Shown here one piece after another: positions 3,586 through 57,476 of a stretch of DNA of 64,000 bases (within the stretch, counting starts at the first letter, position 1; the number at the start of each line of letters is the position of its first letter). This DNA comes from a phage: sequence record OZ336096.1; one strand, written 5' to 3'. The position numbers and the translations under genes are program-made. The notes beneath the pieces were generated by a model. That model worked only from the letters and a program-made list of their open reading frames with translations, had not been told where the DNA came from and did no database searches.

Positions 3586-3917
3586 TGGGAACATTAACTA
3601 TTGATGGTAAGAATAAAATCCTCGCCACGCTAACCCCAACGACTATTATTTTACACAATGTAGACCCAACGGCAGACCCTACAGCAAATAAGGTTACTCA
3701 GCCAGTGGCTATTTATTTTTCTGAACCGGATAATGGCTTAATTGCCTCAGAAGATACAGTTAATATTACTGTTCCAGCTTCTGCAACGGTCTCACACTAT
3801 AGCTTGTGGGATGCTAACGATAAATGCGTGGCAACTGGTGCTCTTAGCAAACCTCAATTCTTCGCTGAAGAAGGTATCTATGTTATCTCTTCAGTCTCTG
3901 TAGATTTAAACAAATAG
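3585..3917 (+). CDS. hypothetical protein (head module)
   Basis: 110-aa ORF, start overlaps stop of upstream ORF (ATGA-type coupling). Confidence 0.4.
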   Translation: MGTLTIDGKNKILATLTPTTIILHNVDPTADPTANKVTQPVAIYFSEPDNGLIASEDTVNITVPASATVSHYSLWDANDKCVATGALSKPQFFAEEGIYVISSVSVDLNK

Positions 3918-20428: not shown

Positions 20429-20437
20429 TTTCTTTAC

Positions 20438-20460
20438 AGGGGCTTGAAAGCCCCTTTTTA
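20438..20460 (+). terminator. rho-independent terminator after first tail-fibre gene
   Basis: Perfect 8-bp stem AGGGGCTT/AAGCCCCT followed by TTTTT. Confidence 0.8.
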
Positions 20461-20474
20461 GAGGAAAATTTATA

Positions 20475-23512: not shown

Positions 23513-24409
23513 TTTACCTACTGACAAAGGTGCTTCAATCTTTCCTGCATGTTGGTAATTGTTAATACCACCAATAAAGTCACTTGCAGTGAGATGTTTT
23601 AAGTCACTTAAAGTGTTAAGTGGGATACCAATCTCAAAAGTTGGTGCATGGAACTCTTCATTGTTCATCAGTTCATAAACCTGCTTCATATGATTATGAT
23701 AAATCTGAGTATCTCCAAAGACACCTATCAAGTACCGTGGAGTGTATCCAGTCATCTTACAAAGAACTTCCAGAATAAAACCATAAGATGCAATATTAAA
23801 CGGAAGTCCTAAAAAGGTGTCTACTGAACGCTGATACCATTGTAAGTCAACTTCACCCTCGTTAGTAATATAAATCTGAAACAGAACATGACAAGGTGCT
23901 AGAGCCATTGAGTTTGCTGCAATATCTGCTGCATTCCAAGCATTAACAAGCATGTAACGGTCTGTGATATCACCCTTCATCTTCGTTACTAAGGTTTCTA
24001 ACTGGTCTACAACACAACCATTATGACCTTCAAAGTTTCTCCACTGAACTCCGTAGATTCTTCCACCTGCATCCTCTAACCAATCTTGTTCAGAAGAATA
24101 ATTAGAGCTTAACCAGCGTTTAAAATCATCTGACCAGATAGTCCAGCGGTCTCCGTCATTTTCACCCCAAGTACGGTAACGAAGTTCACCCAGTTTATTC
24201 TCACCATTCAGGAACCATAAAGCTTCCCCGATAACTTGCCGTGTAAACACCTGTTTAGATGTTAAGAGTGGGAAACCAGTTCTCATATCAAAACGAAACT
24301 GTGGTGGAGCAAATGCAGAGATAACATCTCCAGTTCGTGTAGTACGCAGTTCACCAACGGATAAAACATGGTTCAGGATATTTTTGTAACTTGAATCTGC
24401 TTGTGACAT
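23510..24409 (-). CDS. thyA: thymidylate synthase
   Basis: 299-aa translation matches ThyA hallmarks (RTGTG-like RTTRTGD, FPLLTSK, EALWFLNGE); intact, no intron. Confidence 0.9.
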   Translation of the reverse strand: MSQADSSYKNILNHVLSVGELRTTRTGDVISAFAPPQFRFDMRTGFPLLTSKQVFTRQVIGEALWFLNGENKLGELRYRTWGENDGDRWTIWSDDFKRWLSSNYSSEQDWLEDAGGRIYGVQWRNFEGHNGCVVDQLETLVTKMKGDITDRYMLVNAWNAADIAANSMALAPCHVLFQIYITNEGEVDLQWYQRSVDTFLGLPFNIASYGFILEVLCKMTGYTPRYLIGVFGDTQIYHNHMKQVYELMNNEEFHAPTFEIGIPLNTLSDLKHLTASDFIGGINNYQHAGKIEAPLSVGK

Positions 24410-24410
24410 A

Positions 24411-24956
24411 TCAAAAGTGTCCTTTTACTTGTGGAACATAAATTTCAAAGGTTGCTTTACCATCATCTGAGGGTCTTGACTGCACCTTTGCAAATACACG
24501 GCTATCATACAACTTATCGAAGAAGTTTTCAAAAGGTAAATGCACAGTGGCCTCTTCAGTTACTTTATGGAAGACTGTGTGGAACACTACATCAGCATAC
24601 GGTAAAGCATTTACAAGGACACCTACACCACCAATTACAAAGACATCTTCATCAATAGAGCTATCAAGATACTTCAAAAATGCTCCAAAGGATTCTTTAC
24701 TGGCCTTAGCATACATTACATCATCTTTGTCAAAGTCTATACCTAAATATGGTACAGAGTTTGTTAAGACGAGGTTTGTACGTTCTGGTAAAGGTTTACT
24801 ACCCAGAGTCTTAAAAGTTTCATTACCCATGACTACTAAGTTGTCTTTAGTGAGTCTCTTAAACTCTTGCATATCCTGTTTATGTCGAGGCCACGGCATA
24901 CCAGTTGGAGTACCAAACTCCCCATTTTCACCACTTGCAAAGATTAATTTAATCAT
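24411..24956 (-). CDS. folA: dihydrofolate reductase
   Basis: 181-aa translation with DHFR pattern (MIKLIFA...GMPWP...VVMGNETFKTLG...PLPERTNLVLT); adjacent to thyA. Confidence 0.85.
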   Translation of the reverse strand: MIKLIFASGENGEFGTPTGMPWPRHKQDMQEFKRLTKDNLVVMGNETFKTLGSKPLPERTNLVLTNSVPYLGIDFDKDDVMYAKASKESFGAFLKYLDSSIDEDVFVIGGVGVLVNALPYADVVFHTVFHKVTEEATVHLPFENFFDKLYDSRVFAKVQSRPSDDGKATFEIYVPQVKGHF

Positions 24957-25213
24957 TTTGTAAATCCTTTCTTAATGAACCAGTTGATAACATTCTTCAC
25001 AGCTTTATTGCTATGGTAGATTAAGTGTGGTGTAGGTTGGTATGCACCATAAGCCCAGAAAGCAATGATTTCATTACACCCTGTACACCTTGTGCTCTCT
25101 TCAGCGATATGACCGTTGACTATTTCACTTACCTCACCTTGTAAGTCTGTACACCCACAATGTGGACATCGGATAGGTGTTCCATCAGACTCATAGCAGT
25201 GTTCAATTTTCAT
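24953..25213 (-). CDS. zinc-ribbon protein
   Basis: 86-aa ORF with CPHCGC ... CTGCN cysteine pairs. Confidence 0.5.
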   Translation of the reverse strand: MKIEHCYESDGTPIRCPHCGCTDLQGEVSEIVNGHIAEESTRCTGCNEIIAFWAYGAYQPTPHLIYHSNKAVKNVINWFIKKGFTK

Positions 25214-25735
25214 TTATTTAACCTCAAAAACTGGCTCAAGAACCAATATAAAGTCTACACAGTCATCTTCTTCATCCAGAATACCATCAAAGTTCTTAGG
25301 AACGAAGTCGAAGAGGCTCATAACAAAACAGTCAGAAGTGACCCTGATAGTCCCTCCAATATTCTCTACAGTTAACACTGTACGACTTTCTTTTACCTCC
25401 CTCAGAAGATTATCCACAAAGTCATCTAAGAAGTACTTCATCAGTGACTTAAAACCTTTAGGGTAATCTGTACCAGAGTATGTTTCAATCTGAGGCACAA
25501 GCTTAACATTTATACTAGTCTTTGTTAAGAACGTGTTAGAGAACATACTATCAGGTAACTTACAAACAGTCTTTCCAGTACCTTCATGTTCAATCTCAAC
25601 AAAACCAGCTTCGTCACCACATGTAGCTATTTTAAAAGATGCCTCATTCTCATACTGTGAAGCCATAAACTTTTTAAGCATTTCTTTAAGGAAATCTGCA
25701 TGAGCATCTTGTAAGTAGATATCAATCATAATCAA
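25214..25735 (-). CDS. hypothetical protein
   Basis: 173-aa ORF in leftward early block. Confidence 0.45.
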   Translation of the reverse strand: MIMIDIYLQDAHADFLKEMLKKFMASQYENEASFKIATCGDEAGFVEIEHEGTGKTVCKLPDSMFSNTFLTKTSINVKLVPQIETYSGTDYPKGFKSLMKYFLDDFVDNLLREVKESRTVLTVENIGGTIRVTSDCFVMSLFDFVPKNFDGILDEEDDCVDFILVLEPVFEVK

Positions 25736-25742
25736 TCACCTA

Positions 25743-26102
25743 TTATGGGAACAAGCACTTAATGTCATCGTTTTTGAAAACGAAGCTTGTGTAGTTATGA
25801 CCGTCAACATCCAGCCAAACAGCCTGAACATCTACACCATCAAGGTTGTGGTAAAGCTCTTTGATGAAGTGGTCTTTCACAATCTGACTGCTAGTAGTTT
25901 CCAGCTTAATGTTCGAGATTGCTGAACCTACAGCCATGTAGCCCATGACACGTTTCTTCTCAGTATGCTTAATCTTTCCATCTTTGTAAGCCATAATGAG
26001 ATTGGAAAGAATTTTTACACCATAATACTTTTCAAGGTGAGTAGGTACACCATAAAAGCCTAATGCGAAGTTTTCAGAGTGGATAATGTTTTCACGTTTC
26101 AT
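25743..26102 (-). CDS. hypothetical protein
   Basis: 119-aa ORF. Confidence 0.45.
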   Translation of the reverse strand: MKRENIIHSENFALGFYGVPTHLEKYYGVKILSNLIMAYKDGKIKHTEKKRVMGYMAVGSAISNIKLETTSSQIVKDHFIKELYHNLDGVDVQAVWLDVDGHNYTSFVFKNDDIKCLFP

Positions 26103-26103
26103 G

Positions 26104-26433
26104 TTAATCTGCCAACCTTAAATTGAAATTAACACCAAATTTTTCACATACTTCCAACATATACTCAAGGGAGACGTTACCAGTGAGATGGATTATGTTG
26201 GATACACGAGCCTGAGAGATACCACAAATTTTAGCGACTTGCTCTTGAGAAAGACCTCTGGATTTAATCTCTCTCTTAAAACGATGTGCAACGAAATCTC
26301 TCATTTCGTCTACATCCATTGGACAGATGTAATTTTCCATTTCAGCCTCTCTATCAGCCTCCCAATCATCTTGTGGAGCATAAGGGTCAAAAACCTCATT
26401 CATCTTTCTTCTTCCGTTTGCGTGAAGCATCAA
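26104..26433 (-). CDS. HTH (XRE-family-like) DNA-binding protein
   Basis: Contains LSQEQVAKICGISQARVSNI helix-turn-helix signature; real start may be the internal ATG near 26403. Confidence 0.55.
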   Translation of the reverse strand: MMLHANGRRKMNEVFDPYAPQDDWEADREAEMENYICPMDVDEMRDFVAHRFKREIKSRGLSQEQVAKICGISQARVSNIIHLTGNVSLEYMLEVCEKFGVNFNLRLAD

Positions 26434-26608
26434 TCAATGAATCTATGTTTGTAGCTCTAACCTTTTCACGTTCATCGTTAAGATAATCATCAAGAGCCTT
26501 TTCAATCTGTGAATCATCTTGACAGATAACTGTAAAGACTGTAAAGCCGTCTGTATCGTCAATTATCTTACCATAACCGCTTCTGGGATGTAACTTTTTA
26601 AGAGCCAT
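26396..26608 (-). CDS. hypothetical protein
   Basis: 70-aa ORF with basic C-terminus (RKRKKKDE). Confidence 0.4.
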   Translation of the reverse strand: MALKKLHPRSGYGKIIDDTDGFTVFTVICQDDSQIEKALDDYLNDEREKVRATNIDSLIDASRKRKKKDE

Positions 26609-26609
26609 A

Positions 26610-26993
26610 TTAGATACCTGTACAGCTTCTGTTTTCTAAGAAATACTCAACACCATACATAGCTTTTTGCATCAAATCTTCTTTAAACTGGATACGATGA
26701 TTGAGCATAGCCTGTACATCAATATCATCATGGTGTTTCTCTTTAATATTTGCAGATTGCAGGAAATACTCTGCAAGAACACGATATTGATAGTCAGTAA
26801 CCTTATCAGTCATCTCTGTTAAAGACTCTTCAGAGATTGGTTTAAGTAACTCACCATTAGCCAGAGCAACACCTTTTACAATCTGGCAAGTGTCTTCTGG
26901 AACACCTGATAAGTCCACATTTGGAAGTTCTGTTGCATTGACTGGTAAATTCATTGCCATAACCATTGCAGCAGCTAATAAAATCTTTTTCAT
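26610..26993 (-). CDS. secreted protein (signal peptide)
   Basis: 127-aa ORF starting MKKILLAAAMVMAMNLPVNA, a typical Sec signal peptide. Confidence 0.5.
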   Translation of the reverse strand: MKKILLAAAMVMAMNLPVNATELPNVDLSGVPEDTCQIVKGVALANGELLKPISEESLTEMTDKVTDYQYRVLAEYFLQSANIKEKHHDDIDVQAMLNHRIQFKEDLMQKAMYGVEYFLENRSCTGI

Positions 26994-27037
26994 AATGACC
27001 TCAAAGTTATATTAAATTTTGTATTACATTGAGTATA

Positions 27038-27084
27038 AAAATAAGCTATAACACCTGACTTGTCAACAGATTTTATAGCTTATT
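27038..27084. promoter_or_regulatory. 13-bp perfect inverted repeat flanking a TTGACA-containing 21-bp loop
   Basis: AAATAAGCTATAA ... TTATAGCTTATTT; on the - strand the hairpin is followed by a T-rich tract (possible ligase terminator) and encloses a -35-like TTGACA. Confidence 0.4.
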
Positions 27085-27426
27085 TGGCAGATTTTTTATA
27101 AGGCTACTGCCATCCTTCCATACCAGACTACACCATGCCAGACCAGACTTCACATCACCCTACCGTGCAATACATTACTTAAAAAACCTCTTAGAAAGAC
27201 TCTTAAGTGATGCTGGTGAGTACCCGTTGGTTTATGCTGCTCAGTATACTCACCAAATTTTCTATGTCAACAACTTTTATATAAAAGTCCTGATAGCTAT
27301 ATGTGTTACAAAACAGAAGATTGTGAACAAAACACCCATTGCAAAAGATGTGTCCAAAAGCTTACTTGCAATGTATGACAATACAAAGACAACCAGTATA
27401 AACAGAATGACTGTACTGAACATAGT

Positions 27427-28527
27427 TTACTCATAATCCCTAATAACTAGCCCTACAGGAAACTGTAAAGAACCCTTACGAGTCATCTTCTGGAACTGAA
27501 CAGTTAAAGGTTTCCCGATAAACTCTTCAGGATGCTCAGCAAGATACTGTTTCTTCTCATGAGTAGTCTTCCATGATACATCTACAAAGACGTTAGGAAG
27601 AGTCTCTACAACGAACTTGCCATGACCACGCTTATCAGTCTTTACACCAGTCACTTTAAACTCTTCAGTGTGCATCTTCTTGTGCTTAATCAAGAAGTAT
27701 GAACGGTGACAGCACTCATAGAAGGAGTCTTCAGAGATTGAACGGTACATTGCACCTTCAAACTGAGCTTCAACCCACTTATCATGGGCTTCATCAAACT
27801 CTTCCCAAGAATTTACACGGATAGTCTGTACAGGAACCACTCTACAGGTATCCCCAAGCTCAACAATAGGTGAACTATCAATAACTTCACGACGCTCAGG
27901 CCAAGATTTTGAATTGTCACAGATATCATACCAGTAGAATTTAAGAAGGTGACGGTCTGGATTGTCAGCATTCTTAATCATAGACACAATATCTTCTAAG
28001 TCCTGCCCATGAGCATAAATCTCACCATCAAAGTCTTCAACTTGTGGATGTAATTTAAGCAACAAAAGCAAATCTGGAATTAGTTCTGCTGGAACGTTGT
28101 AAACAGTATTCTCACGAGAATAAGCTGTGAAACTAACTGTATCAGCATCTCTTGAAATTCTACAACGTACACCATCAAGTTTTGGTTGAGCATCAGCAGG
28201 GAACTTCAAATACTTTGCATGGCTAACCTTTGCAGCATCATGAGCAAGCTGTACACCTACCTTCTCAGTATTCTGTGCAGACTCTTTTGTATAAGCATAA
28301 CCTTTACGGTCAACTTGCTTTTTATACTTAGCAGCAACTTCAAAGAGAGCTTGCTGTTCAGCGTTACGCTCATTCTTTTTACCGATGTTTTTAGGTTCTG
28401 CTGTATACTCTTCAAACATCATCTTGCCATTTTCTTTACCGTAGGTTGTAATAACTTTGTCACCTACAGCAACACATGACCAAACGTTAAAAGAGCCATC
28501 TTTATTTTGTTTGTACAGTATTGTCAT
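27427..28527 (-). CDS. ATP-dependent DNA ligase
   Basis: 366-aa ORF containing the ligase adenylation motif KLDG (PKLDGVRC). Confidence 0.85.
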   Translation of the reverse strand: MTILYKQNKDGSFNVWSCVAVGDKVITTYGKENGKMMFEEYTAEPKNIGKKNERNAEQQALFEVAAKYKKQVDRKGYAYTKESAQNTEKVGVQLAHDAAKVSHAKYLKFPADAQPKLDGVRCRISRDADTVSFTAYSRENTVYNVPAELIPDLLLLLKLHPQVEDFDGEIYAHGQDLEDIVSMIKNADNPDRHLLKFYWYDICDNSKSWPERREVIDSSPIVELGDTCRVVPVQTIRVNSWEEFDEAHDKWVEAQFEGAMYRSISEDSFYECCHRSYFLIKHKKMHTEEFKVTGVKTDKRGHGKFVVETLPNVFVDVSWKTTHEKKQYLAEHPEEFIGKPLTVQFQKMTRKGSLQFPVGLVIRDYE

Positions 28528-28730
28528 TTTCTCTTACCACCAATTTCTACGTCAATAACTTGAACATCACCAGCAACATCAAACTTATGAATGATGCTTT
28601 CCACAGTGTAAGTCCAACCATCAATGCGAACAAGCTCACCTTCTCGTGGGACTATTGGATTACGTTGAGCTACCGTTGTAGTAGAGTGAACAACATCATA
28701 ACGGTAGATATAGTTTACTAGGACTTCCAT
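28524..28730 (-). CDS. hypothetical protein
   Basis: Listed ORF 28524..28829 overlaps the lipoprotein gene; internal ATG at 28730 gives a 68-aa non-overlapping product. Confidence 0.3.
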   Translation of the reverse strand: MEVLVNYIYRYDVVHSTTTVAQRNPIVPREGELVRIDGWTYTVESIIHKFDVAGDVQVIDVEIGGKRK

Positions 28731-28740
28731 CGTGAAAACC

Positions 28741-28998
28741 TCACTCAATAACCGTAGTATGTGATTGACCATTTTTGCCGTAGCTATAAGATGTTGTTGT
28801 TTGAGAGTTTGGACATCTGACAACAACAATATCCCTACTTATAGCGTCACCATTGAGTTTGTAGATTTTGCAGTCTTGCATCTCTGGAGGGAGGCTATAA
28901 GAGGTATCTTTGTTTTCATAAGATGGGTTACAGCCAGCCAGAAAAATTACTCCAAGTGCAACCATTGCTTTCACACAACTCTTAACCTTATTGTTCAC
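28741..28998 (-). CDS. lipoprotein
   Basis: 85-aa ORF with signal peptide and lipobox (VIFLAGC). Confidence 0.55.
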   Translation of the reverse strand: MNNKVKSCVKAMVALGVIFLAGCNPSYENKDTSYSLPPEMQDCKIYKLNGDAISRDIVVVRCPNSQTTTSYSYGKNGQSHTTVIE

Positions 28999-29130
28999 GA
29001 TAGTCTACCTCTCTGTATGTTTTTAAATAGTGAGTGATGAGTTCTGGTAATTCACTACGTTTAACGTTTGAACGAAGAAGTGTCCAGTCAAAACCTTTAC
29101 CAACCCTTCCCCAGAGACTGTACATTTTCT

Positions 29131-29349
29131 TCATAGCAACTCCAGAATATCAATACGTTCACCCTTAAGGACTCCGGTGCGGTCTCTTGCAATCTTACCG
29201 TCAACGATAAGGATATGCGCGACCTTTAAAGCCTCACGATTAAAACCTTTTAAGAACTTACTAGGCATCACCACAATAAGCATCTCTTGAATCAACTCTG
29301 GAGTATAGCAGTTGTCGTGAAGTTGCTGAATAACGTCTGCAAGTGTCAT
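29131..29349 (-). CDS. hypothetical protein
   Basis: 72-aa ORF. Confidence 0.4.
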   Translation of the reverse strand: MTLADVIQQLHDNCYTPELIQEMLIVVMPSKFLKGFNREALKVAHILIVDGKIARDRTGVLKGERIDILELL

Positions 29350-29400
29350 ATAACCTCCTATATAAGATACAGTATAAGGTACTCTTCCCTGAGCACCTTG

Positions 29401-29934
29401 TCAACTTAGTTTTGCAAACTCTCCGTGGAGTTTAATAGCAGCTTCACAGTAAGCTTTATGGGCTTCTTCAGGGGTGTCATGGTGACCTAAAAACATCTTC
29501 TTACCTTTATAACTTATCTGTGCGACCCACTTACCAGACTTCTTCTTAAGACTTACACCCTTGTACCCAGATTTATTGGTGACTGGTTTACCTTTATTCC
29601 AAGCACTTTGAAAATCATCTGCTTCCCTTAAGTTTACAATCCTGTTGTCAAGCGAGTCTCCGTTGATATGGTCAATGATACCTTTTGGCATCTTGCCATA
29701 CACGTAAAGCCATGCGAGTCTGTGTGCTTTATGTGCTTTCTTGTCAAAATAGATACTAATCTGTTTATGACCACTTGAATCAGTCTGGATATTACCTGCC
29801 ACCTTTCCTGCATAATTACTGTTAAAAACACTAACAGCTCTTGATTTACCTTCTCTACGAAGCCAAGTAAAGACCCCTGTTTCGGGGTCATAGTGCAGCA
29901 GCTCCTTTAAACGTTTTTGTAAAATTAAGTCCAT
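29401..29934 (-). CDS. HNH-AP2 homing endonuclease (free-standing)
   Basis: HNH motif (IDHINGDSLDNRIVNLR) followed by AP2-type DNA-binding domain (YKGVS...KWVAQISYKGKKMFLGHHDTPEEAHKAY); sits immediately 3' of DNA polymerase exon 2. Confidence 0.8.
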   Translation of the reverse strand: MDLILQKRLKELLHYDPETGVFTWLRREGKSRAVSVFNSNYAGKVAGNIQTDSSGHKQISIYFDKKAHKAHRLAWLYVYGKMPKGIIDHINGDSLDNRIVNLREADDFQSAWNKGKPVTNKSGYKGVSLKKKSGKWVAQISYKGKKMFLGHHDTPEEAHKAYCEAAIKLHGEFAKLS

Positions 29935-29937
29935 TAA

Positions 29938-30494
29938 TCAATGTACCTCATACCAGCTCTTACCAACCTTTGCTGTACCAGTTACAAGTGTTTCTTTCCT
30001 CAAACCTAAGTTTTTTGAAGCTTGTCCATACATCCAGTCAGCAATTGCTTTCATATCCTGTGTCATACCCTCTGGACATTCCCAACTATTTTCATCGTGA
30101 TATGCCAGAAGTAACCTTGCTCCGATAGCTGGTTTTCGAGCATTCAGTTTTGTCAGGCCATCTTCACAGGCTTTTCTTGCTGCTAGGTTGATGGCCTCAT
30201 TCTGAATCTGTGCTTCCGAACTCATCAGGAGGTAGTTCAGTAGTTTATGTGGAGATTTGCACCATATCCATGCTCCAGCGACCCTGATATAACCACCTTT
30301 AGCAATTGAAGAATTCTTCCCAAAAACCTCTTCCAGAGCCTTTTTAGACGCCTTAAAATCGGCTTCTAAGCTATCAAGTAACTTCTTAATCTTTGGCAGA
30401 CGCATATAGTAAGTTTGTTTAGTCAATGCACCTTCTTCCGTAGATGATGCTTTGATAGTTTTTGCAAACTTCTCGTCACCTGCACCGAACAATA
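29938..30494 (-). CDS. DNA polymerase (family A, T7-like), exon 2
   Basis: Begins inside motif B (..LFGAGDEKFAK, cf. T7 FLYGAGDEKIG), contains HDE motif C and T7-like C-terminus (KSWYEVH); listed ORF starts with TTG, consistent with an exon rather than an independent gene. Confidence 0.8.
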
Positions 30495-30762
30495 CATCTG
30501 GTCAATACACTCGCAAGGTGTACCAGTTCTCTTATGAACTTCTCCGCATTTCTACGGAGTGTCGGACTATATCACGTAGTAGTAATACTACCGTTGCACT
30601 TGGGAATGGTCATTAGCTTACCACCCTACTCTACTCAGTTCATACATTAAGTATGCTTTTCGATAGTCTCTGAACGTTCCTCTTAAGAGGCTTCGCTGCT
30701 GATTACCATATCTTTTAAGACTTAGGCTTCCAGCAATTCACAACGTTTTACATGCGCCACTG
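30495..30762 (-). ncRNA. group I self-splicing intron (ORF-less) in DNA polymerase gene
   Basis: Conserved group I elements read on the sense strand in order P (AATTGCTGGAA; + coords 30728-30738), Q (AATCAGCAG; 30696-30704), R (GTTCAGAGACTATCG; 30661-30675), S (GATATAGTCC; 30564-30573); proposed boundaries put U at the 5' exon end, G at the intron end, and restore motif B as IYALLFGAGDEK; exact splice sites are inferred. Confidence 0.7.
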
Positions 30763-32935
30763 ACGCATAGATGCCATTTTTGCTCTTCTTACGACCTTTT
30801 GTAATCTCGTGAAGAAGTTCCTCATCCTGTGTCTCCCTACAACGAACAATATCTTCTTCCTTGTTCAGACCAAAGTAAATACTGTTCAGTGTATGCGCAT
30901 CAGTCCCTGTGTAGACTTCATAGAGGTCGTTCTCAGCATCATAACGAAGATACTTGTCAGTTTCTGGATTAAGATACTTATCGAGATGCTTGCAATAGTA
31001 TCTTCCATCCTCTTGCTTAGTGAACTCTACTGACTCTTTACCCTCAGTTACTGCTTTAGTGAAGTCTTCATCACCCATAAAGTTACAAAGAAGAACTAGC
31101 TGGGCTGAGTTCTGGTCAACGGAAACGATGTTAGTCCCCTCCTCACAAATCCACACCTCCCTCATAGGTGCTCCATAGACAGCAGCACCAGACGGTACGT
31201 TTACAATACCATATTGCGTCATACGTCCAGTTGAAGTACCAAACACCATTGCACCAGCACTAAGGCGACCATCTGGACGAATCTGGTTCAACCAACCTTT
31301 TTCATCATCCTTTGAGTTCTCAATAGTCCTGCGTCGGTGCATCAAAGTATAGTACTTAGCAATCTTCTGTCCAAGCTCACCTTCAATCGTATCATAAGAT
31401 GATTCAGTAAGTTTTGGTGAAGTACGGATTAAGCAAGGCTCAAGCAAATCTGTGTACTTCTTCACAGACCAGTTATGTTCAATGTACTGGACACCTTCAT
31501 GTTCAACATAACTCAAGCCGCACCGTTCAACCATCTCCTGCCACTTAGGATGCTTTGTAATCATCTTTTTGTTGTCTTTGAAACGACAAACTTTGACAGG
31601 GCGACCATCTGAATCTTTCTTGTAGTTCCAGTCATCTGGAATCCAGCCAACTGATTTCAAGTAGTCTTTAACAACTGCTACTTGAGTCATACGAGAAACT
31701 TCAAACTCAATTGGTGTATATGGTGCATCAATCAATCCTGTGTAGCGACTTGACTCCAGTCCAAAGTGGTTAACAACATGACTGTTATAGTACTTCACAG
31801 TTTTAACTGTTTTTACTGGCTTCCAGTCTTTGCATTTCTTACCAATCTTTGCGTTCAACTCATTGCAAATTGCACGAGCATCCTTCATTGCTACAAAACC
31901 CTCCTTGTACTCTTCACCAGTTACAGAGTTGGTTGGCGTATAGCAATTTCTCTTTTCAATGTTAAAAATCTTTGTAGTTGGCTTACCAAATGGTTTGATT
32001 TCGTATGTCTGCATCTCACCGTTACGTACCTGCTGACGATACTTTGTCTTAGGGTACTTGGTAATCCTCTTCAGTCCATCTGCATGACCAAATGTTTCAA
32101 CATACTCATTCCAAGCTTTTGCAAACTCTTCTCCAGTGACTTTACCTTTGGTCTTAATAGTTGGAGGAAGATGTGGTTCAACCTCTGAAGCAAGCTCATT
32201 AGTCAACTTGTCAAGTTCCTTTACATGGAACTCCATAAGTTCTTTATCAGCTTTCCAACCATTGATAGCTTGTTGACTCATCCAGAAAGATGTTTCTTTA
32301 GCTCGCATGTAGGTTTCATAAGTGTCTATGCCACACTTCTTAAGCTTGAGATACTCATTATCAAGTGCCCGTTTAGTTTTGGCGTTAATACGGATATCTT
32401 CTACAACACGAGTGAAGATTTCTGCATTCCACACACCCCAATGTTCAATCTCTGGTTTACGAACACCAACACGAGCACCCCATGCAGCCAAACCATGAGC
32501 ACCTTTATAACCCTTTGGAGTTGGTCTATCCATCCACTGAACACGAGACTGGATAAGAGAATCCTGAAAGAAGTTACTCCACGGTTTACACTTTGGATTA
32601 TCAAAGTTCCATAAATCAGGTGCAATGTGGTTGAAAACCCACCAGTCATAACCGAGACCATTATGGATGCAAAGACGTTTTGCCTTTAACGCAAACTCAA
32701 CACCTTCACGCAAACCACCCTTAATGTACTTGGTATACTTGTGACCGAGGATAGGCTCGTCTGTAAAGACCCATACAGGTGGCTCTTCATCGTCAGATTT
32801 ATAGTCTGCAAAGGCCATTACGTGAACTTTAGTGAACTCAAGGAGTAAACCATCAGTTTCTGTATCACCAACCAAATGTAAGTTTTTAAAATCTACGTTT
32901 TCCATTTTTACTCCCTCTAAAATCATTAACCACAT
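30763..32935 (-). CDS. DNA polymerase (family A, T7-like), exon 1
   Basis: 3'-5' exonuclease Exo I motif DTETDG near N-terminus; ends in first half of motif B (RKKSKNGIYA); probable true start at the ATG for MENVDFK (~32905); the listed ORF's last 13 codons are read-through into the intron. Confidence 0.85.
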
Positions 32936-32965
32936 ACATTACTGCAAAAAATTATAAAAAGCAAG

Positions 32966-32995
32966 TTGACAATACACTTGACAAGGTGTTAATCT
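32966..32995 (+). promoter_or_regulatory. putative sigma70-like promoter (TTGACA-18-TAATCT)
   Basis: In the AT-rich divergent intergenic region between the DNA polymerase start and the 33163 gene; -10 is weak; a second TTGACA lies at 32978. Confidence 0.4.
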
Positions 32996-33100
32996 TTGCG
33001 AAGTGGGTTTTTACTTAAAAGGTTACTTAACAGTTTAACTATACAGATACTTTAAAACTCTTAAAAGATTATTTAATAGCTTTTAAAAAGCTTTAAAGTA

Positions 33101-51786: not shown

Positions 51787-52057
51787 AGAAAAGTGGGAGA
51801 TTTTACCATTAGTCAGTGAAGGTGGTAATGGTTGTGAGATGTACATGATACGTGGTCATGTTCCAGAACCAATTGCACTTGAGATGGTAAACAACTTTAC
51901 AGATGGTTCTTACAAAGACTTAGGAGAGCCAACTATAAAGCATCAATGGGTAAAACCTGTACCAGACAGCACAGGTAACTGTAGTGTACTTTACCACGTT
52001 GTAGACCCTGTAAAATGCAAATCTGCAATGGCAGTAACAAACGTAACTTTTGATTGA
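51779..52057 (+). CDS. hypothetical protein
   Basis: 92-aa ORF. Confidence 0.4.
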   Translation: MAKEKWEILPLVSEGGNGCEMYMIRGHVPEPIALEMVNNFTDGSYKDLGEPTIKHQWVKPVPDSTGNCSVLYHVVDPVKCKSAMAVTNVTFD

Positions 52058-52066
52058 GAGAAAATT

Positions 52067-52522
52067 ATGATTTTTTGCAGCTTCCAAAAAAGAATTATTG
52101 AGATTCTATACAATAAGTTTGGGACAGATAACACATTTGACTCAAATGAAGCTATTGAAGCCCTACAAGAAGGAAGTGATTACATCAAAAAACAGCCAAT
52201 AGCAAACATCAGGTACTACTTGACTCAGATGAGAAAGTGGGGTGTGCTCATCGTGGTAGGACAGATTAAGCAACAAGGGAGGATGCTCATCAACCAATTA
52301 AATAGAGGTTTTATTGAGAAGCACATTCAGCTAGACTATTTACTTAAAGAGCCACGAAACCAACGTGAAGAGCAGCAAAAAGACTTAAGTGGTGGTGTAG
52401 GTGTGTCTCCAGACATAAAATTCTTTATTGGTGAGTTGATGTTTGATACACTCCAAGATGCTGTTGAACACTGCAAAAAGTATGTTATCAAAGTAAAACG
52501 TGCAAAAATTATTTGGGAGTAA
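52067..52522 (+). CDS. paralog family protein, copy 1 (A-type)
   Basis: 151 aa; shares N-terminal MIFC.(F/L)QK..IEILY..FGT.NTFDSNEAI.AL and C-terminal A(V/I)EHCKK..IKVK.AK(I/V)IWE with copy 3. Confidence 0.6.
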   Translation: MIFCSFQKRIIEILYNKFGTDNTFDSNEAIEALQEGSDYIKKQPIANIRYYLTQMRKWGVLIVVGQIKQQGRMLINQLNRGFIEKHIQLDYLLKEPRNQREEQQKDLSGGVGVSPDIKFFIGELMFDTLQDAVEHCKKYVIKVKRAKIIWE

Positions 52523-52526
52523 TAAC

Positions 52527-52922
52527 ATGTTTGAGCTTCTGAAGGTTCTGTATATAAATTTTGGCTATGATAAAACATTTTCTGGCTCACAACTAACTAA
52601 GGTTTTTAATAAGTATCTACCACATGCTTCAATCAGGGATAAAGCTAATTGGTCTCACAGATTACGTAAAAGTGGGTATATTAGCGTTGTTGGAGCGACA
52701 GGCTTTAATAATGAGTATCTTATGAGAATCAATGAAGGCAAAGCTAAAAATGTGCTTTTAAATTGTAATGACCATCAACAAAAGGATGAAGAGGTTAGTG
52801 TAGGTGAAGTAGGGTACTTTATAGGTGACATGCACTTTACCAGTATGGAGGCAGCAGTTGAGCATTGTAAGAGAACGGTTATCCAAACAAAAAGAAAGCG
52901 TATTGTTTGGGAAGAAGTTTAA
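52527..52922 (+). CDS. paralog family protein, copy 2 (B-type)
   Basis: 131 aa from ATG 52527; shares M(F/I)ELLKVLY..FGYDKTF and C-terminal EA(A)VE(H/Y)CK..(V/I)IQ.KR.(R/K)(I/V)(V/I)WE with copy 4. Confidence 0.6.
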   Translation: MFELLKVLYINFGYDKTFSGSQLTKVFNKYLPHASIRDKANWSHRLRKSGYISVVGATGFNNEYLMRINEGKAKNVLLNCNDHQQKDEEVSVGEVGYFIGDMHFTSMEAAVEHCKRTVIQTKRKRIVWEEV

Positions 52923-52943
52923 ACATTTGATTAGGAATACACT

Positions 52944-53408
52944 ATGATTTTTTGCAATTTACAGAAGCACGTAATAGAGATTTTATACAAAACCTTCGGG
53001 ACAGAAAACACTTTTGACTCTAACGAAGCAATTGACGCATTAAGAGAGAATAGCCTTTTTATACGAGGCCAGTCAATCAGTAATACCCGTGGGTATCTAA
53101 CAATGTTAAGACAGTCTGGTGTACTGCTGACTGTAGGGCAGGTAAAAAGCAAAGGTAGACTAAGTATTAATCAATTAAATCGAGCCTTTATGGAGAAGCA
53201 CATACAACTGTCAAGGATGCTAGATAATACGCGTGAAGAGTTGGGGAGTTCACAAAAAGCAAGTTCATCTGATGTTAAAGAGGTGGATGTACAACCTGAC
53301 GTAAGATACTTTATTGCTGATGTTATGTTTAAAACACTCGATGAAGCTATTGAGCACTGCAAAAAGCATCTTATTAAAGTTAAATATGCAAAAGTTATTT
53401 GGGAGTGA
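52944..53408 (+). CDS. paralog family protein, copy 3 (A-type)
   Basis: 154 aa; clear paralog of copy 1. Confidence 0.6.
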   Translation: MIFCNLQKHVIEILYKTFGTENTFDSNEAIDALRENSLFIRGQSISNTRGYLTMLRQSGVLLTVGQVKSKGRLSINQLNRAFMEKHIQLSRMLDNTREELGSSQKASSSDVKEVDVQPDVRYFIADVMFKTLDEAIEHCKKHLIKVKYAKVIWE

Positions 53409-53412
53409 TGCT

Positions 53413-53793
53413 ATGATTGAACTGTTAAAAGTCCTGTATAATGAGTTTGGTTATGATAAAACTTTTACTTGTTCACAGATACGTAGTATCCATGATAAGG
53501 AATTTCCAAATGTATCCAAGACAAACAAGTCAACTCGGTTCAATCGTCTTCGCCAGAGGGGTTACATTAAAATAGTTGGATACAAGAATAACTCTTTCGA
53601 GTATGTAATGCAGATTAACAGAGAAGTATCAAGTAAAATACTTGAAGAGCCAACAGCCGAAGAACAAAAGATACAAGACGGTGAAGTTCGCTTCTTTGTG
53701 GAGAAGGAAAGTTTTGGGTCAATAGATGAAGCTGTCGAATATTGTAAAAAGAACATTATTCAGATAAAGCGTAGAAAGGTTATTTGGGAATAA
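53413..53793 (+). CDS. paralog family protein, copy 4 (B-type)
   Basis: 126 aa from ATG 53413; clear paralog of copy 2. Confidence 0.6.
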   Translation: MIELLKVLYNEFGYDKTFTCSQIRSIHDKEFPNVSKTNKSTRFNRLRQRGYIKIVGYKNNSFEYVMQINREVSSKILEEPTAEEQKIQDGEVRFFVEKESFGSIDEAVEYCKKNIIQIKRRKVIWE

Positions 53794-53808: not shown

Positions 53809-54690
53809 ATGAAAACATCTATCCGTGTTACAGTTCATTCACCGACTAAAGGGACTCACGAAGAAGAGTTTAACATTATCCAATTCCCTTCTGGTGAGAT
53901 TGGTGGACACTTTTCACAAGAGCTTGTTGATTTCACTGCTTATGCAGCATCATCCATCAACAATGTGATTATGATTGTAAAGGGTTACGATAAGGATACC
54001 TTGTTTGCCCTAGCACTTGCTAAAGAGGTGGTGGATGACTTAGTACCTCATAAGTTTGCTATGAAGACTGTTATCTTTTACTATTTGCCAAATGCACGTT
54101 ACGACCGTCACATGTTTAAAGGTGATGCAGCAGCTTTGAAAGTGTTTGCACAACAGGTTAATGCAATGGGTTTTGATGCAGTCTGTGCAGTTGACCCTCA
54201 CAGCTATGTACCAGATAACCTGTTTAACTGCTTCCAGAGTATTCCTCAAAAGGAAATTGCAGTTCACTATGCAAATGACCCTCTGATTGATTACTTAGTA
54301 GCCCCAGATGCAGGTGCTGCTAAGAAGATTGCAGAGACTGCTAAAGAGGTGGATAAACCATATATCACAATGTCTAAAGTACGCAACCTTAAGACTGGTG
54401 AAATTACTGGTATGCGAATCCTTGATGATGTTGATTTGACAGATAAAACCGTCATGATTCTGGATGATATCTGTGATGGTGGTCGAACCTTCATAGAAGC
54501 AGCGAAACATCTTCGTGAAGCAGGTGCAAAACGTGTGGAACTATATGTAACACATGGTATCTTCTCTAAAGATGTTGAAAACCTTCTTGACAACGGTATC
54601 GACCATATTTACACTACAAACTCTTTAGGCGAAGCTAAAGACCGTGGCTTAACACATTATAGCCAAGTTACTGTAGCAAACCTTGATTGA
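53809..54690 (+). CDS. prs: ribose-phosphate pyrophosphokinase (PRPP synthetase)
   Basis: 293-aa ORF with PRPP-binding motif (VMILDDICDGGRT) and DPH motif; followed by terminator. Confidence 0.85.
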   Translation: MKTSIRVTVHSPTKGTHEEEFNIIQFPSGEIGGHFSQELVDFTAYAASSINNVIMIVKGYDKDTLFALALAKEVVDDLVPHKFAMKTVIFYYLPNARYDRHMFKGDAAALKVFAQQVNAMGFDAVCAVDPHSYVPDNLFNCFQSIPQKEIAVHYANDPLIDYLVAPDAGAAKKIAETAKEVDKPYITMSKVRNLKTGEITGMRILDDVDLTDKTVMILDDICDGGRTFIEAAKHLREAGAKRVELYVTHGIFSKDVENLLDNGIDHIYTTNSLGEAKDRGLTHYSQVTVANLD

Positions 54691-54699
54691 AAGTTTATA

Positions 54700-54720
54700 G
54701 GGGCTTAAAAGCCCCATTTT
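54700..54720 (+). terminator. rho-independent terminator after prs
   Basis: GGGGCTT-AA-AAGCCCC followed by ATTTT. Confidence 0.75.
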
Positions 54721-55077
54721 GAGAGAGATTAAAAGATGACTAAATCACTTTATGCAGTACCAGCAGGTTTAAACGCAGATGCTTACAAGTCATCGCATAT
54801 ATATCAGTATCCAGATGCTACACAGTATCTTATGCTGAACCTGACGCCACGTAGTGACAAATGGTTTAACAGCCCCTTAGCAATTGATGGTGTAGTAGCT
54901 TTTGGTATTCAACGTTTCGTTAAAGATTACTTGATAGACCACTGGAACGCCACTTTCTTTGAACGTGATAAAAAAGAAGCAATTGACGAAATCTTAGAAG
55001 TCATGAACGGTGTTCTGGGCAAAGATGCTATTGGTCGAGAGCATTGGGAAGCACTTCACGACTTAGGTTATCTGCCA

Positions 55078-55960
55078 GTCGAAGTATACGCTGTAGAAGA
55101 AGGCACAGTTGTTCCAATGCGTGTCCCAATGATTGTCTTCCAGAACACTGTTTCAGGCTTCCATTGGGTAGCAGGTTATCTGGAAGACGCTTTCTCTGCT
55201 GAGATTTGGAAGGCTTGTACCATTGCAACTATTGCATTGCACTACAAACGTATCTGTAAGAAGTGGGCTGACCTTACTTGTGACAACGACTTGCATTTAC
55301 CTTATCAGTGCCATGACTTTGCTATGCGTGGTATGTCCGGCTTTACTGATGACGCATTTAACGCTGTAGGCCACTTAACCAGCTTTAAAGGAACTGATAG
55401 CTTCCCTGCTGTATATACAGCTAAACGCATCTACGGGCAGTCTTACCCAATCTCTGATATTGGTGGTTCTGTACCAGCCACTGAACACTCTGTAATGTGT
55501 GCAAACATTGCTTGGGAAGGTGGTAATGAATTGATTGAAGAAGAAAGACGCTTCAAAGGTGAGTTGCAAACCTTCCGTCGCTTCTTAACAGAGACTTACC
55601 CAACTGGTATTGCAAGTGTTGTTTCAGACACTTATAACTTCTGGAGAACTGTGTCAGAAATCTTACCAGCACTCCGTAAAGAGATTATGGAACGTGATGG
55701 CAAACTGGTAATTCGTCCTGACTCTGGAGACCCTGTACATATTGTCACAGGTTATAAAGCAATCCACTTAGAGTGTGCTAAAAAGGCTTATTACGAGCAC
55801 CTAAGCAAGCTAGAGGCAGGTGATACAATGCTGAGCACCGTCCTGAACATGAAGCTTGAAGATATTAACTATGTTATGGCTGGGTGGTTACGTGCAGAAG
55901 GCTATGAAATGGTGGTTGACAGAGAAGACTTTGAAGTAGCCGATACAGTGTTGCTGAAAG
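55078..55960 (+). repeat. tandem duplication, copy 1 (883 bp)
   Basis: Identical to 55998..56880 at 920-bp offset wherever checked by eye. Confidence 0.85.
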
Positions 55961-55997
55961 CTTCATGTTCAGGACGGTGCTCAGCATTGTATCACCT
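55961..55997 (+). repeat. inverted 37-bp junction segment
   Basis: Exact reverse complement of 55818..55854; abuts the palindromic AAGCTT at the end of copy 1. Confidence 0.85.
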
Positions 55998-56880
55998 GTC
56001 GAAGTATACGCTGTAGAAGAAGGCACAGTTGTTCCAATGCGTGTCCCAATGATTGTCTTCCAGAACACTGTTTCAGGCTTCCATTGGGTAGCAGGTTATC
56101 TGGAAGACGCTTTCTCTGCTGAGATTTGGAAGGCTTGTACCATTGCAACTATTGCATTGCACTACAAACGTATCTGTAAGAAGTGGGCTGACCTTACTTG
56201 TGACAACGACTTGCATTTACCTTATCAGTGCCATGACTTTGCTATGCGTGGTATGTCCGGCTTTACTGATGACGCATTTAACGCTGTAGGCCACTTAACC
56301 AGCTTTAAAGGAACTGATAGCTTCCCTGCTGTATATACAGCTAAACGCATCTACGGGCAGTCTTACCCAATCTCTGATATTGGTGGTTCTGTACCAGCCA
56401 CTGAACACTCTGTAATGTGTGCAAACATTGCTTGGGAAGGTGGTAATGAATTGATTGAAGAAGAAAGACGCTTCAAAGGTGAGTTGCAAACCTTCCGTCG
56501 CTTCTTAACAGAGACTTACCCAACTGGTATTGCAAGTGTTGTTTCAGACACTTATAACTTCTGGAGAACTGTGTCAGAAATCTTACCAGCACTCCGTAAA
56601 GAGATTATGGAACGTGATGGCAAACTGGTAATTCGTCCTGACTCTGGAGACCCTGTACATATTGTCACAGGTTATAAAGCAATCCACTTAGAGTGTGCTA
56701 AAAAGGCTTATTACGAGCACCTAAGCAAGCTAGAGGCAGGTGATACAATGCTGAGCACCGTCCTGAACATGAAGCTTGAAGATATTAACTATGTTATGGC
56801 TGGGTGGTTACGTGCAGAAGGCTATGAAATGGTGGTTGACAGAGAAGACTTTGAAGTAGCCGATACAGTGTTGCTGAAAG
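55998..56880 (+). repeat. tandem duplication, copy 2 (883 bp)
   Basis: Identical to 55078..55960. Confidence 0.85.
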
Positions 56881-57450
56881 ATGCTTACATCAACGGCTCT
56901 GCAAACGTTGTAACACGTCCTGTAGCGGAGATTGATGGAGCTATCAAGACACTGTATAACATCTTTGGGGGAACTATTAACTCTAAAGGGTTTAAGGTAC
57001 TGGATGAGCACATCGGCCTTATCTATGGTGACTCTATCACACTGGAACGTGCAAACGAAATCCTGAAGCGTCTGTATGAAATGGGTTTTGCAAGCTCTAA
57101 CGTGGTGTTTGGTGTAGGTTCTTACACTTACCAGTACATGACTCGTGACACCTTTGCATTTGCTGTCAAAGCAACTCTTGCAAGCATTGGTGGTAAAGAG
57201 ATTATGCTTGCAAAAGACCCTAAAACAGATAGTGGTGTTAAAAAATCTGCCTTTGGTGGTGTAGCACCTATGTGGGATGGTGATAAGCTGAAAGCTGTAG
57301 ATGGCTATGGATTCCAGAGTTTTGCGGATGTACTTGACCACCCAGCTTGTGCTTTACGTTTAGTCTTTAGTGACTCTGAGCAGTTCGGTTACACAACTCT
57401 TGGTGATATTCGAAATAATATTGACAAGCAGCTTTAAAAGTATATGATAA

Positions 57451-57476
57451 GAGGCTCCTACGGGAGCCTTTTTAAT
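57451..57476 (+). terminator. rho-independent terminator after nadV
   Basis: AGGCTCC-TACG-GGAGCCT followed by TTTTTAATTT. Confidence 0.8.

Follow-up and report, generated by a model that had tools for sequence, protein, structure and literature searches.

A core NARP1 operon in a Felixounavirus genome with namat interrupted, as assembled, by a duplication of its own sequence

NAD+ reconstitution pathway 1 (NARP1) was founded on the phage Bas63 (Escherichia phage JohannRWettstein, MZ501086), where it is encoded by bas63_0079 and bas63_0080. The Prs-like enzyme of the pathway, Adps, has been assayed as the SpbetaL1 homologue, which gave no measurable product in a Prs-type assay and converted ADP-ribose (ADPR) and ATP to ADPR-PP, while the NadV-like enzyme, SpbetaL1 Namat, preferred ADPR-PP over PRPP and made NAD+ directly (10.1101/2024.02.11.579819; PMC12774641; PMC13586617). 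When both donors were offered, SpbetaL1 Namat made NAD+ only, and without ADPR-PP it could make NMN from PRPP in vitro (10.1101/2024.02.11.579819). Both SpbetaL1 and ICP1 Adps have been shown to pyrophosphorylate ADPR and not ribose-5-phosphate; the evidence from Bas63 is the in vivo metabolite only, with ADPR-PP appearing during infection only with the wild-type phage (10.1101/2024.02.11.579819). Bas63 without genes 79-80 has been found to be viable and sensitised to SIR2-HerA (10.1101/2024.02.11.579819). In 97% of the Adps clade, a gene for Namat lies close by (10.1101/2024.02.11.579819).

The locus compared here with these systems is found in sequence record OZ336096.1, in a stretch of 64,000 nucleotides (the window) that makes visible 64 kb of the ~87-kb genome. 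The window shares 94-96% nucleotide identity with many genomes of the genus Felixounavirus (FelixO1-like phages) and its gene order matches that of Felixounavirus relatives, with rIIA/rIIB downstream of the two genes of interest. On the + strand, a Prs-like gene, adps (53809-54690), is followed after 45 nt by a NadV-like span, namat (54736-57437). A sequence-only reading of the window had placed the pair at 53809-57437, which is exact, and had taken it for a module with which phages rebuild NAD+ depleted by NAD-degrading defences, which is borne out by the orthology to Bas63 genes 79-80. Judged by homology, the locus is a core two-gene NARP1 operon; the pathway has already been described and its current understanding is unchanged by this locus. 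We assign a probability of about 0.9 to the joint reading of a NARP1 core operon in a FelixO1-like phage, a namat gene broken by its own duplication, and an origin of the duplication that leans towards an artefact. The features around namat are as follows.

53809-54690, + strand: adps, ADP-ribose pyrophosphate synthetase (Prs-like), an intact ORF of 293 aa with Pfam and NCBIfam matches
54700-54715, + strand: short GC hairpin (GGGGCT-TAAA-AGCCCC), read directly, inside the 45-nt adps-namat spacer
57449-57472, + strand: terminator-like hairpin with a T-run behind it, 12 nt past the namat stop codon

The same spacer is occupied by an HNH homing endonuclease gene in phage ESCO50, and in phiTE a homing endonuclease gene lies inside namat. 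The whole NARP1 locus has been naturally lost in ESCO56.

Membership of the two proteins in the Prs and NAMPT superfamilies, as previously proposed, was supported by Pfam, NCBIfam and phrog matches. For Adps, these include Pribosyltran (E 1e-11) and Pribosyl_synth (E 4e-10) in Pfam (PF14572, PF00156) as well as phrog_619 (E 2e-98). Adps passed the cut-off of the broad NCBIfam subfamily model TIGR01251 (126.8 bits, cut-off 113) and scored below every NCBIfam Prs equivalog cut-off (107 vs 296 bits for NF002095 and 94 vs 297 bits for NF002320). It is 96.6% identical to RPN213 gp102, 79.9% to Bas63_0079, ~33% to ICP1 Adps and 23% to E. coli Prs; its N-terminal domain (residues 1-176) represents a different allele, with only 70% identity to Bas63. 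In the alignment, Adps R97, H131, D167, K190, D219-D223 and F228 correspond to ICP1 Adps R87, H121, D161, K185, D212-D216 and F221, and the catalytic beta-hairpin Lys (K190) and the acceptor residues of the PRPS-like fold are conserved. At the PP loop, this Adps and ICP1 Adps both read DDICDG (DDMIDT in E. coli Prs), but they differ in the residues that come next (GRT in this Adps, AAS in ICP1). The adenine-stacking F18 and F92 of ICP1 align to the non-aromatic residues T16 and M102, the latter with F103 adjacent (weakly aligned region). Moreover, the C-terminal alpha11-alpha12 filament/regulatory module of canonical PRPS is lost (293 aa vs 315 aa), a ~20-aa C-terminal segment of E. coli Prs having no counterpart in the window, Bas63 and ICP1 proteins.

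The namat span contains two overlapping ORFs, both matching the NAPRTase/NAMPT families, and with 920 nt taken out it becomes a 1782-nt open frame encoding 593 aa. This repaired Namat is identical to RPN213 gp103 at 580 of 593 residues and shows 96.3% identity to Bas63_0080. Its best solved-structure matches are to SpbetaL1 Namat (9W5W/9W5X, 432 bits), with lower scores for the entries of Xcc Nampt (178 bits) and mammalian NAMPT (~142-145 bits). Two insertions, one of ~80 aa at residues ~343-420 and one of 15 aa close to residue 258, make this Namat a long form. Residues D15, Y17, R327, D329 and G458-D459 of the repaired protein correspond to SpbetaL1 D13, Y15, R306, D308 and G360-D361, and the Nampt-like catalytic core (nicotinamide-stacking Asp/Tyr, the Arg and Asp in RPDSGD, and the GD loop) is complete only without the 920-nt duplication. 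The selectivity-clamp helix (SCH) motif, GSYTYQYMTRD at residues 488-498, fits GS-X-Phi1-X-Phi2-X-Phi3-TRD with three aromatics, the aromatic X residues of this motif being those that stack on the adenine; it is identical in Bas63 and reads GSYTYQYVTRD in ICP1 and GGGLLQQLDRD in KVP40 NadV. The selectivity-clamp loop (SCL) is S40-D41-K42-W43, the same as in Bas63 Namat. In the published description of the SCL, its third position is Arg, Lys or Tyr, and where it is Lys or Tyr the stacking falls to the fourth residue; Bas63 Namat is described as carrying a Lys at the third position and a fourth residue that stacks on adenine. By residue comparison, the Namat of this locus carries the adenine-clamp signature by which Namat is told apart from Nampt, and KVP40 NadV does not.

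The proposed mechanism starts from bacterial NADase defences, for example SIR2-HerA, DSR and type I Thoeris, which split NAD+ into ADP-ribose and nicotinamide. Based on orthology, Adps would then make ADPR-PP by moving the beta-gamma pyrophosphate of ATP onto the free ribose of ADPR, and Namat would allow nicotinamide to displace the pyrophosphate of ADPR-PP, forming NAD+ in one step. PRPP, NMN and NMN adenylyltransferase would not be involved in such a two-step pathway. The biochemistry behind the NARP1 assignment is that of the SpbetaL1 and ICP1 homologues, at 33-42% identity; this weighs against the assignment, as do the divergent N-terminal domain of Adps and its non-aromatic T16 and M102.

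By comparison, the sequence-only reading had proposed that prs and nadV act by way of PRPP to convert nicotinamide to NMN, with the final NMN adenylyltransferase step encoded elsewhere or supplied by the host. The former proposal is at odds with published homologue assays, which show ADPR-PP and direct NAD+ formation, and the latter is not needed, as the two-step NARP1 requires no NMN adenylyltransferase. Classical salvage, in which Prs makes PRPP, NadV (NAMPT) makes NMN from nicotinamide, and an NMNAT is provided by the phage elsewhere or by the host, is very improbable for this locus. The profile names that suggest it persist (PF14572, PF00156, PF04095 and PF18127 in Pfam; TIGR01251 and NF006629 in NCBIfam), all relatives are annotated as ribose-phosphate pyrophosphokinase/nicotinamide phosphoribosyltransferase, and the in vitro formation of NMN by SpbetaL1 Namat when ADPR-PP is absent could be read in the same way, but classical salvage is contradicted by the biochemistry of the SpbetaL1 Adps and Namat homologues, and the two proteins of the window are orthologous to those of Bas63, a phage that gives rise to ADPR-PP during infection. 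The adenine-clamp motif in Namat, absent from the true NMN-forming phage enzyme KVP40 NadV (28.9% identical), and the Adps scores of 94-107 bits, where the Prs equivalog models require 296-297, also argue against it. Moreover, neither a Nudix box nor the NMNAT HxGH motif was found in the six frames of the 64-kb window by a crude regex scan, which agrees with the earlier statement that no NMNAT was recognised in the window. Bas63 has no annotated NMN adenylyltransferase either in the 40 kb viewed.

The interruption of nadV in the assembly, also noted from the letters alone, was confirmed and can be described precisely: namat holds a 920-nt frameshifting insertion of its own sequence, made up of an 883-nt perfect direct repeat and a 37-nt inverted filler, as listed below.

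54736-56016, + strand: namat 5' fragment ORF as assembled, 426 aa (Namat 1-408 plus an 18-aa out-of-frame tail)
55078-55960, + strand: repeat copy R1, namat nt 343-1225, 883 nt, 100% identical to R2 at an offset of 920
55818-55854, + strand: filler source, namat codons ~361-373, the reverse complement of which equals 55961-55997, within a local divergence hotspot
55961-55997, + strand: junction filler, 37 nt, exact reverse complement of 55818-55854, with microhomologies AAG on the left and G on the right
55965-57437, + strand: namat 3' fragment ORF as assembled, 490 aa (11 filler-encoded residues plus Namat 115-593)
55998-56880, + strand: repeat copy R2, namat nt 343-1225, 100% identical to R1 and starting exactly at codon 115

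By alignment to 9W5X, the 5' fragment ends short of both the SCH motif (488-498) and the G458-D459-S460 loop. The 3' fragment is without D15, Y17 and the SCL (S40-D41-K42-W43), and its ATG is not preceded by a clear Shine-Dalgarno sequence. As the gene is written, step 2 of NARP1 (Namat) would be inactive, neither predicted fragment having a complete active site. Precise loss of one repeat together with the filler (920 nt) would restore the normal 593-aa namat. Around the filler source, nucleotide identity to relatives falls to 79-82% vs ~95% elsewhere, and the filler and both repeat copies carry the allele of this hypervariable patch that belongs to their own genome.

The namat repeat is the only perfect long repeat in the 64 kb. 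The duplication was found in 0/244 relatives, all of which (244/244) are single-copy; a 161-nt junction query matched 246 phage records, none of them covering at least 80%, and neither IMG/VR nor the GTDB genomes contained an exact match to a 28-mer from the left junction. Since the relatives are unduplicated and the copies and the filler represent the genome's own allele, the structure points either to a library/assembly chimera or to a mutation that arose very recently by template switching. From the junction itself we infer a polymerase template switch in two steps. Compared with a fixed phage genotype, a chimera from library preparation or assembly, or else a minority variant, seems somewhat likelier. 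In MDA-based phage sequencing, ~50-60% chimeric reads have been reported (PMC13108922). An identical structure results from polymerase chimeras formed in vitro and from loop or overlap errors of the assembler, which by our estimate are commoner a priori than a fixed duplication. The zero differences over 883 nt and the uniqueness of the duplication among 244 relatives also speak against a fixed genotype. Perfect tandem repeats are moreover unstable in recombination-proficient phages, where a mixed stock is expected. Short inverted templated insertions with 1-3 nt microhomology, as seen at this junction, are equally typical of template switching during replication in vivo. Published work on genome termini describes direct terminal repeats in a set of six coliphages including Felixounaviruses, with no link to the position of namat.

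That the duplication is a true fixed genotype, formed in vivo by a two-step template switch in replication or break repair and making the phage a natural Namat knockout that could revert via 883-bp homologous recombination, is possible but doubtful. The 3-nt and 1-nt microhomologies and the 37-nt inverted insertion templated ~100 nt upstream would fit such an event, junction microhomology with an inverted templated insertion being a classical signature of replication-based rearrangement, and the presence of the own allele in the filler and both copies indicates an event within this lineage. A fixed namat knockout is plausible because NARP1 is dispensable on defence-free hosts, as seen in the viable Bas63 deletion and the natural deletion in ESCO56, and plaque purification bottlenecks can fix neutral changes. 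A genuine duplication might even represent a reversible off-state, where recombination excises exactly 920 bp and the population is metastable between ON and OFF NARP1, with ON selected only on hosts with NADase defences, although this is a long shot. Co-assembly of two related Felixounaviruses and insertion of a mobile element, intron, intein or HNH gene were also considered, and their chance is next to nil. While homing endonuclease genes do invade the locus in relatives (the ESCO50 spacer and phiTE namat), all 920 nt derive from namat itself and contain no foreign ORF, which refutes a foreign insert. As for co-assembly, namat diverges by ~4-5% from that of the nearest relatives, so that ~40 mismatches over 883 nt would be expected and 0 are seen, and the filler matches the genome's own divergent allele.

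With the leaning towards a chimera or minority variant, the consequences differ by origin. If the duplication is an artefact, record OZ336096.1 needs correction; if it is real, the phage would be without a working NARP1, and the NADase defences SIR2-HerA, DSR and type I Thoeris are predicted to act on it, which bears on host range and therapy. Apart from the duplication, ~250 deposited Felixounavirus genomes and the profile libraries use the old labels ribose-phosphate pyrophosphokinase and nicotinamide phosphoribosyltransferase, which lead readers to look for a non-existent NMNAT step; the proper names are Adps and Namat (NARP1).

Among the known systems, NARP3 comprises a PnuC-like transporter and a NadR-like enzyme, and no PnuC- or NadR-type gene is adjacent to adps-namat; elsewhere in the window, the search for such genes consisted of the crude HxGH scan, with a negative result. 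NARP2 of Vibrio phage KVP40 (NadV/Nampt and the NMNAT NatV) has a transferase of the same superfamily and serves the same purpose, the restoration of NAD+ under NADase defence, but it uses PRPP and needs an NMNAT, whereas Adps is found here and the window has no NMNAT/Nudix motif; KVP40 NadV, at 28.9% identity, also has no aromatic SCH motif. The Adps and Namat core is shared with NARP1-AP (Adps-Adpp-Namat, with a Macro-domain ADPR-1''-phosphatase) and with RyDEP-extended NARP1, although neither a Macro (Adpp) nor a RyR (RyDEP) domain was found by Pfam in the nine flanking ORFs, and PADLOC yielded only trivial phosphoribosyltransferase-fold matches. Extrapolating from 10.64898/2026.01.28.702374, a plain two-gene NARP1 like this one would be expected to fail against aRES, the product of which is ADPR-1P. 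Among phage Namats of the short form, those sampled (for example from Staphylococcus phage K and ICP1) show ~43% identity by tblastn, and SpbetaL1 and ICP1 Namat are without the ~80-aa and 15-aa insertions of the Felixounavirus Namat. ICP1 Adps (structures in PMC13586617) shares R97, H131, D167, K190 and D219-D223 (numbering of this Adps). With the biochemically characterised SpbetaL1 NARP1 (Adps and Namat; 9W5W, 9W5X), the locus shares the gene order adps to namat and the Namat residues D15, Y17, R327, D329, G458-D459 and G488-S489...T496-R497-D498 (numbering of this Namat). Bas63 is closest, belonging to the same genus with an orthologous pair in the same place, where two to three small ORFs and then rIIA/rIIB come downstream, with protein lengths of 293 and 593 aa and identical SCL and SCH clamp sequences. 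Unlike in Bas63, four phrog_29478 paralogues lie here between the gene-78 homologue and adps, and namat is split by the 920-nt self-duplication.

The window comes from a FelixO1-like myovirus (Ounavirinae, Felixounavirus), and the locus together with 24 kb upstream of it shares 94-96% identity and its gene order with many phages of Salmonella, Escherichia and Shigella. Two adjacent, co-oriented genes, adps and namat, are separated by a 45-nt spacer:

53809-54690, + strand, adps, intact ORF, 293 aa (ORF call and Pfam)
54736-57437, + strand, namat region, two overlapping ORFs (ORF call and Pfam)
54736-56016, + strand, namat ORF 1, 426 aa (ORF call)
55965-57437, + strand, namat ORF 2, 490 aa (ORF call)
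12 nt past the namat end, terminator-like hairpin

Removal of a 920-nt insertion from namat gives an open frame of 1782 nt encoding 593 aa (the repaired gene and protein). ORF, repeat and repaired-frame analysis confirmed the observation and coordinates of the sequence-only reading, whose statement that the second gene is not intact was borne out by this 920-nt self-duplication. The superfamilies it recognised match the Pfam assignments, which are phosphoribosyltransferase and PRPP synthetase for the adps product and NAPRTase/NAMPT for both namat fragments. The spacer also carries a GC-rich hairpin (GGGGCT-TAAA-AGCCCC, then ATTTT; 54700-54715, between the adps stop and namat start codons), which was not called by the terminator scan and could be an attenuator or RNA-stability element.

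The same genus includes Bas63 (Escherichia phage JohannRWettstein, MZ501086), in which bas63_0079 (882 nt) and bas63_0080 (1782 nt) match adps and namat in position; the proteins are 79.9% and, for the repaired second gene, 96.3% identical. This Bas63 pair is the example on which NAD+ reconstitution pathway 1 (NARP1) was founded, and Bas63 without it is sensitive to the NAD-depleting SIR2-HerA (10.1101/2024.02.11.579819). The counter-defence role proposed by the sequence-only reading was correct. ADPR pyrophosphate (ADPR-PP) was seen only when wild-type Bas63 infected defence-carrying cells, in a Prs-type assay the gene 79 homologue from SpbetaL1 yielded no product although it made ADPR-PP from ADPR and ATP, and the gene 80 homologue, named Namat, was shown to convert ADPR-PP and nicotinamide to NAD+ (10.1101/2024.02.11.579819). 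From PRPP Namat can form NMN, yet with the two donors supplied together it made only NAD+, and the PRPP-then-NMN reactions predicted from domain annotations "are not the actual reactions" (10.1101/2024.02.11.579819). Since NARP1 arrives at NAD+ directly by the ADPR-PP route, neither the PRPP/NMN chemistry earlier proposed for the window nor its missing final step (an NMNAT encoded elsewhere or supplied by the host) applies.

Residues that matter in ICP1 Adps (R87, H121, D161, K185, D212-D216 and F221; PMC13586617) have exact aligned counterparts in the window protein (R97, H131, D167, K190, D219-D223 and F228). Both have DDICDG in the PP loop, followed by GRT in the window protein and by AAS in ICP1, whereas E. 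coli Prs, only 23% identical to the window protein, has DDMIDT. The window Adps also lacks the C-terminal Prs segment of about 20 aa, an absence described for Adps homologues (PMC13586617), and fails all NCBIfam Prs equivalog cut-offs, passing only the broad TIGR01251 model. Felixounavirus Adps proteins fall into two allele classes, the window/RPN213 type and the Bas63 type, which differ mostly in the domain at the N terminus (residues 1-176, 53809-54340; aa identity 70%, as opposed to 95% for the C-terminal domain). At the adps 5' end nucleotide identity falls to 40-64%, while the linked Namat is still about 96% identical; this pattern suggests that recombination or diversifying selection may have acted inside adps.

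The Namat selectivity clamp has two elements, a helix with the motif GS-X-Phi-X-Phi-X-Phi-TRD, in which aromatic residues at the X positions stack on the ADPR-PP adenine, and a variable loop giving one more stacking residue (PMC12774641). At 488-498 repaired Namat reads GSYTYQYMTRD, and its loop is S40-D41-K42-W43; Bas63 is identical in both, and ICP1 Namat has GSYTYQYVTRD. By contrast, KVP40 NadV, a genuine NMN-forming phage enzyme 28.9% identical to repaired Namat, reads GGGLLQQLDRD. The catalytic-core residues D15, Y17, R327, D329 and G458-D459 correspond one-to-one by alignment, and the best solved-structure matches were SpbetaL1 Namat (9W5W/9W5X, 432 bits), with lower scores for bacterial Nampt (178 bits) and mammalian NAMPT entries (about 142-145 bits). 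The Namat of Felixounavirus phages is a long form: RPDSGDP is followed by an insertion of about 80 aa (residues ~343-420; window 55760-55995, copied at 56680-56915) that has no counterpart in SpbetaL1 Namat, ICP1 Namat or KVP40 NadV; codons ~352-385 within it are the gene's most divergent part among relatives.

The locus is predicted to be a plain two-gene NARP1, because neither a Macro-domain phosphatase (NARP1-AP) nor a RyR-domain glycosidase was found in nine neighbouring ORFs. NARP2, which requires an NMNAT, was rejected, a crude six-frame motif scan of the window having found no NMNAT/Nudix signature, as was NARP3, which pairs a PnuC-like transporter with a NadR-like enzyme, no gene of either type lying next to the locus.

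The duplicated copies, 55078-55960 and 55998-56880, are 883 nt long, 100% identical and offset by 920 nt. The 37-nt filler between them (55961-55997) is the exact reverse complement of 55818-55854, inside the repeat and about 100 nt upstream of the breakpoint, and the junctions show microhomologies of 3 nt (AAG) and 1 nt (G). Both the left breakpoint and the filler source lie within the Namat insertion. Since 920 is not a multiple of three, ORF 1 ends 18 out-of-frame codons past residue 408 and encodes residues 1-408, lacking the GD loop and the entire clamp helix; ORF 2, starting at an ATG inside the filler, encodes residues 115-593 and lacks D15, Y17 and the clamp loop. Judged from these losses, neither fragment as written would be able to be active. 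SpbetaL1 Namat is a dimer in which the partner subunit supplies both N- and C-terminal elements that every active site needs, and a heterodimer of the fragments would therefore also be incomplete.

A 1440-nt query (the second copy plus the 3' end) matched 244 records at exactly one place in each; no record spanning the junction was found in the phage record search, and a junction 28-mer was absent from IMG/VR and GTDB genomes. The two copies form the only long perfect repeat within the 64 kb. Co-assembly of two phages was excluded: the copies show 0 mismatches, where about 40 would be expected for strains as distant as the nearest relatives, and the filler, whose source lies in a hotspot of local divergence (55790-55890; relatives are 79-82% identical there vs about 95% elsewhere), matches this genome's own allele. 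A mobile element was likewise excluded because the insert holds nothing foreign. Tandem duplication, short inverted templated insertion and microhomologies are the hallmark of a two-step template switch by a polymerase, which could occur in vivo, during replication or break repair, or in vitro, as amplification chimeras. Around 50-60% chimeric reads have been reported for MDA-based phage sequencing (PMC13108922). During assembly such a chimera would then become a traversed loop or an untrimmed circular overlap. We favour an artefact or minority variant, at a probability of roughly 60%, over a fixed real lesion, the less likely reading. Artefacts are a priori commoner than 0.9-kb duplications that have become fixed, and instability is a property of perfect tandem repeats; but phages can do without NARP1 where NADase defences are missing, and the locus has been lost naturally in phage ESCO56, which makes a real knockout plausible. 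Should the duplication be genuine, namat would be restored precisely by recombination between the two copies.

Among relatives the adps-namat locus is a rearrangement hotspot. In ESCO50 the spacer is occupied by an HNH homing endonuclease gene (1699-2190 of its locus sequence), in ESCO56 adps is gone and only the final ~55 codons of namat are left, an HNH gene marking the scar (3180-3712 of its locus sequence), and in Pectobacterium phage phiTE an HNH endonuclease gene splits namat. In PV700625 adps is in two pieces. Two separate PHROGs families, phrog_16547 and phrog_15800 (~315 and ~322 positions), cover Namat only in its N-terminal and central parts, which points to a repeated occurrence of split or frameshifted namat among deposited phage genomes. 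Felixounavirus namat sequence, ~95% identical, also occurs in GU169904 ('Staphylococcus phage SA1') and two 'Campylobacter' records, probably mislabelled or contaminated entries. Directly upstream of adps (52067-53793, +) lie four ORFs, paralogues with lengths of 151, 131, 154 and 134 aa, each assigned to the uncharacterised family phrog_29478, in the order A-B-A'-B'; 52045-52170 and 52922-53047 are 74% identical at a spacing of 877, and the quartet reflects an old tandem duplication. RPN213 also has four ORFs here (gp098-gp101), while Bas63 has none, its gene-78 homologue abutting adps; the slot is a variable cargo slot beside the counter-defence operon. Elsewhere in the window, diverged direct repeats with His-rich GAHSH/GAHTH-type motifs (20185-22742, +; units of 58-97 nt, 74-87% identity) probably lie within a tail-fibre gene, and GC skew is negative only at ~24000-33000, which fits a block of minus-strand genes, since Bas63 carries its DNA polymerase gene on that strand.

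Overall, the interpretation given by the sequence-only reading is partly supported, and what is useful here is the corrected assignment (Adps plus Namat, with NMNAT unneeded) and the exact description of the 920-nt lesion. Repaired Namat is identical to RPN213 gp103 at 580 of 593 residues, and by tblastn 1414 phage records contained an Adps homologue and 2024 a homologue of the Namat/Nampt family. NARP1 is already known as a well-characterised, widespread pathway, and the window phage belongs to the very genus of its discovery.
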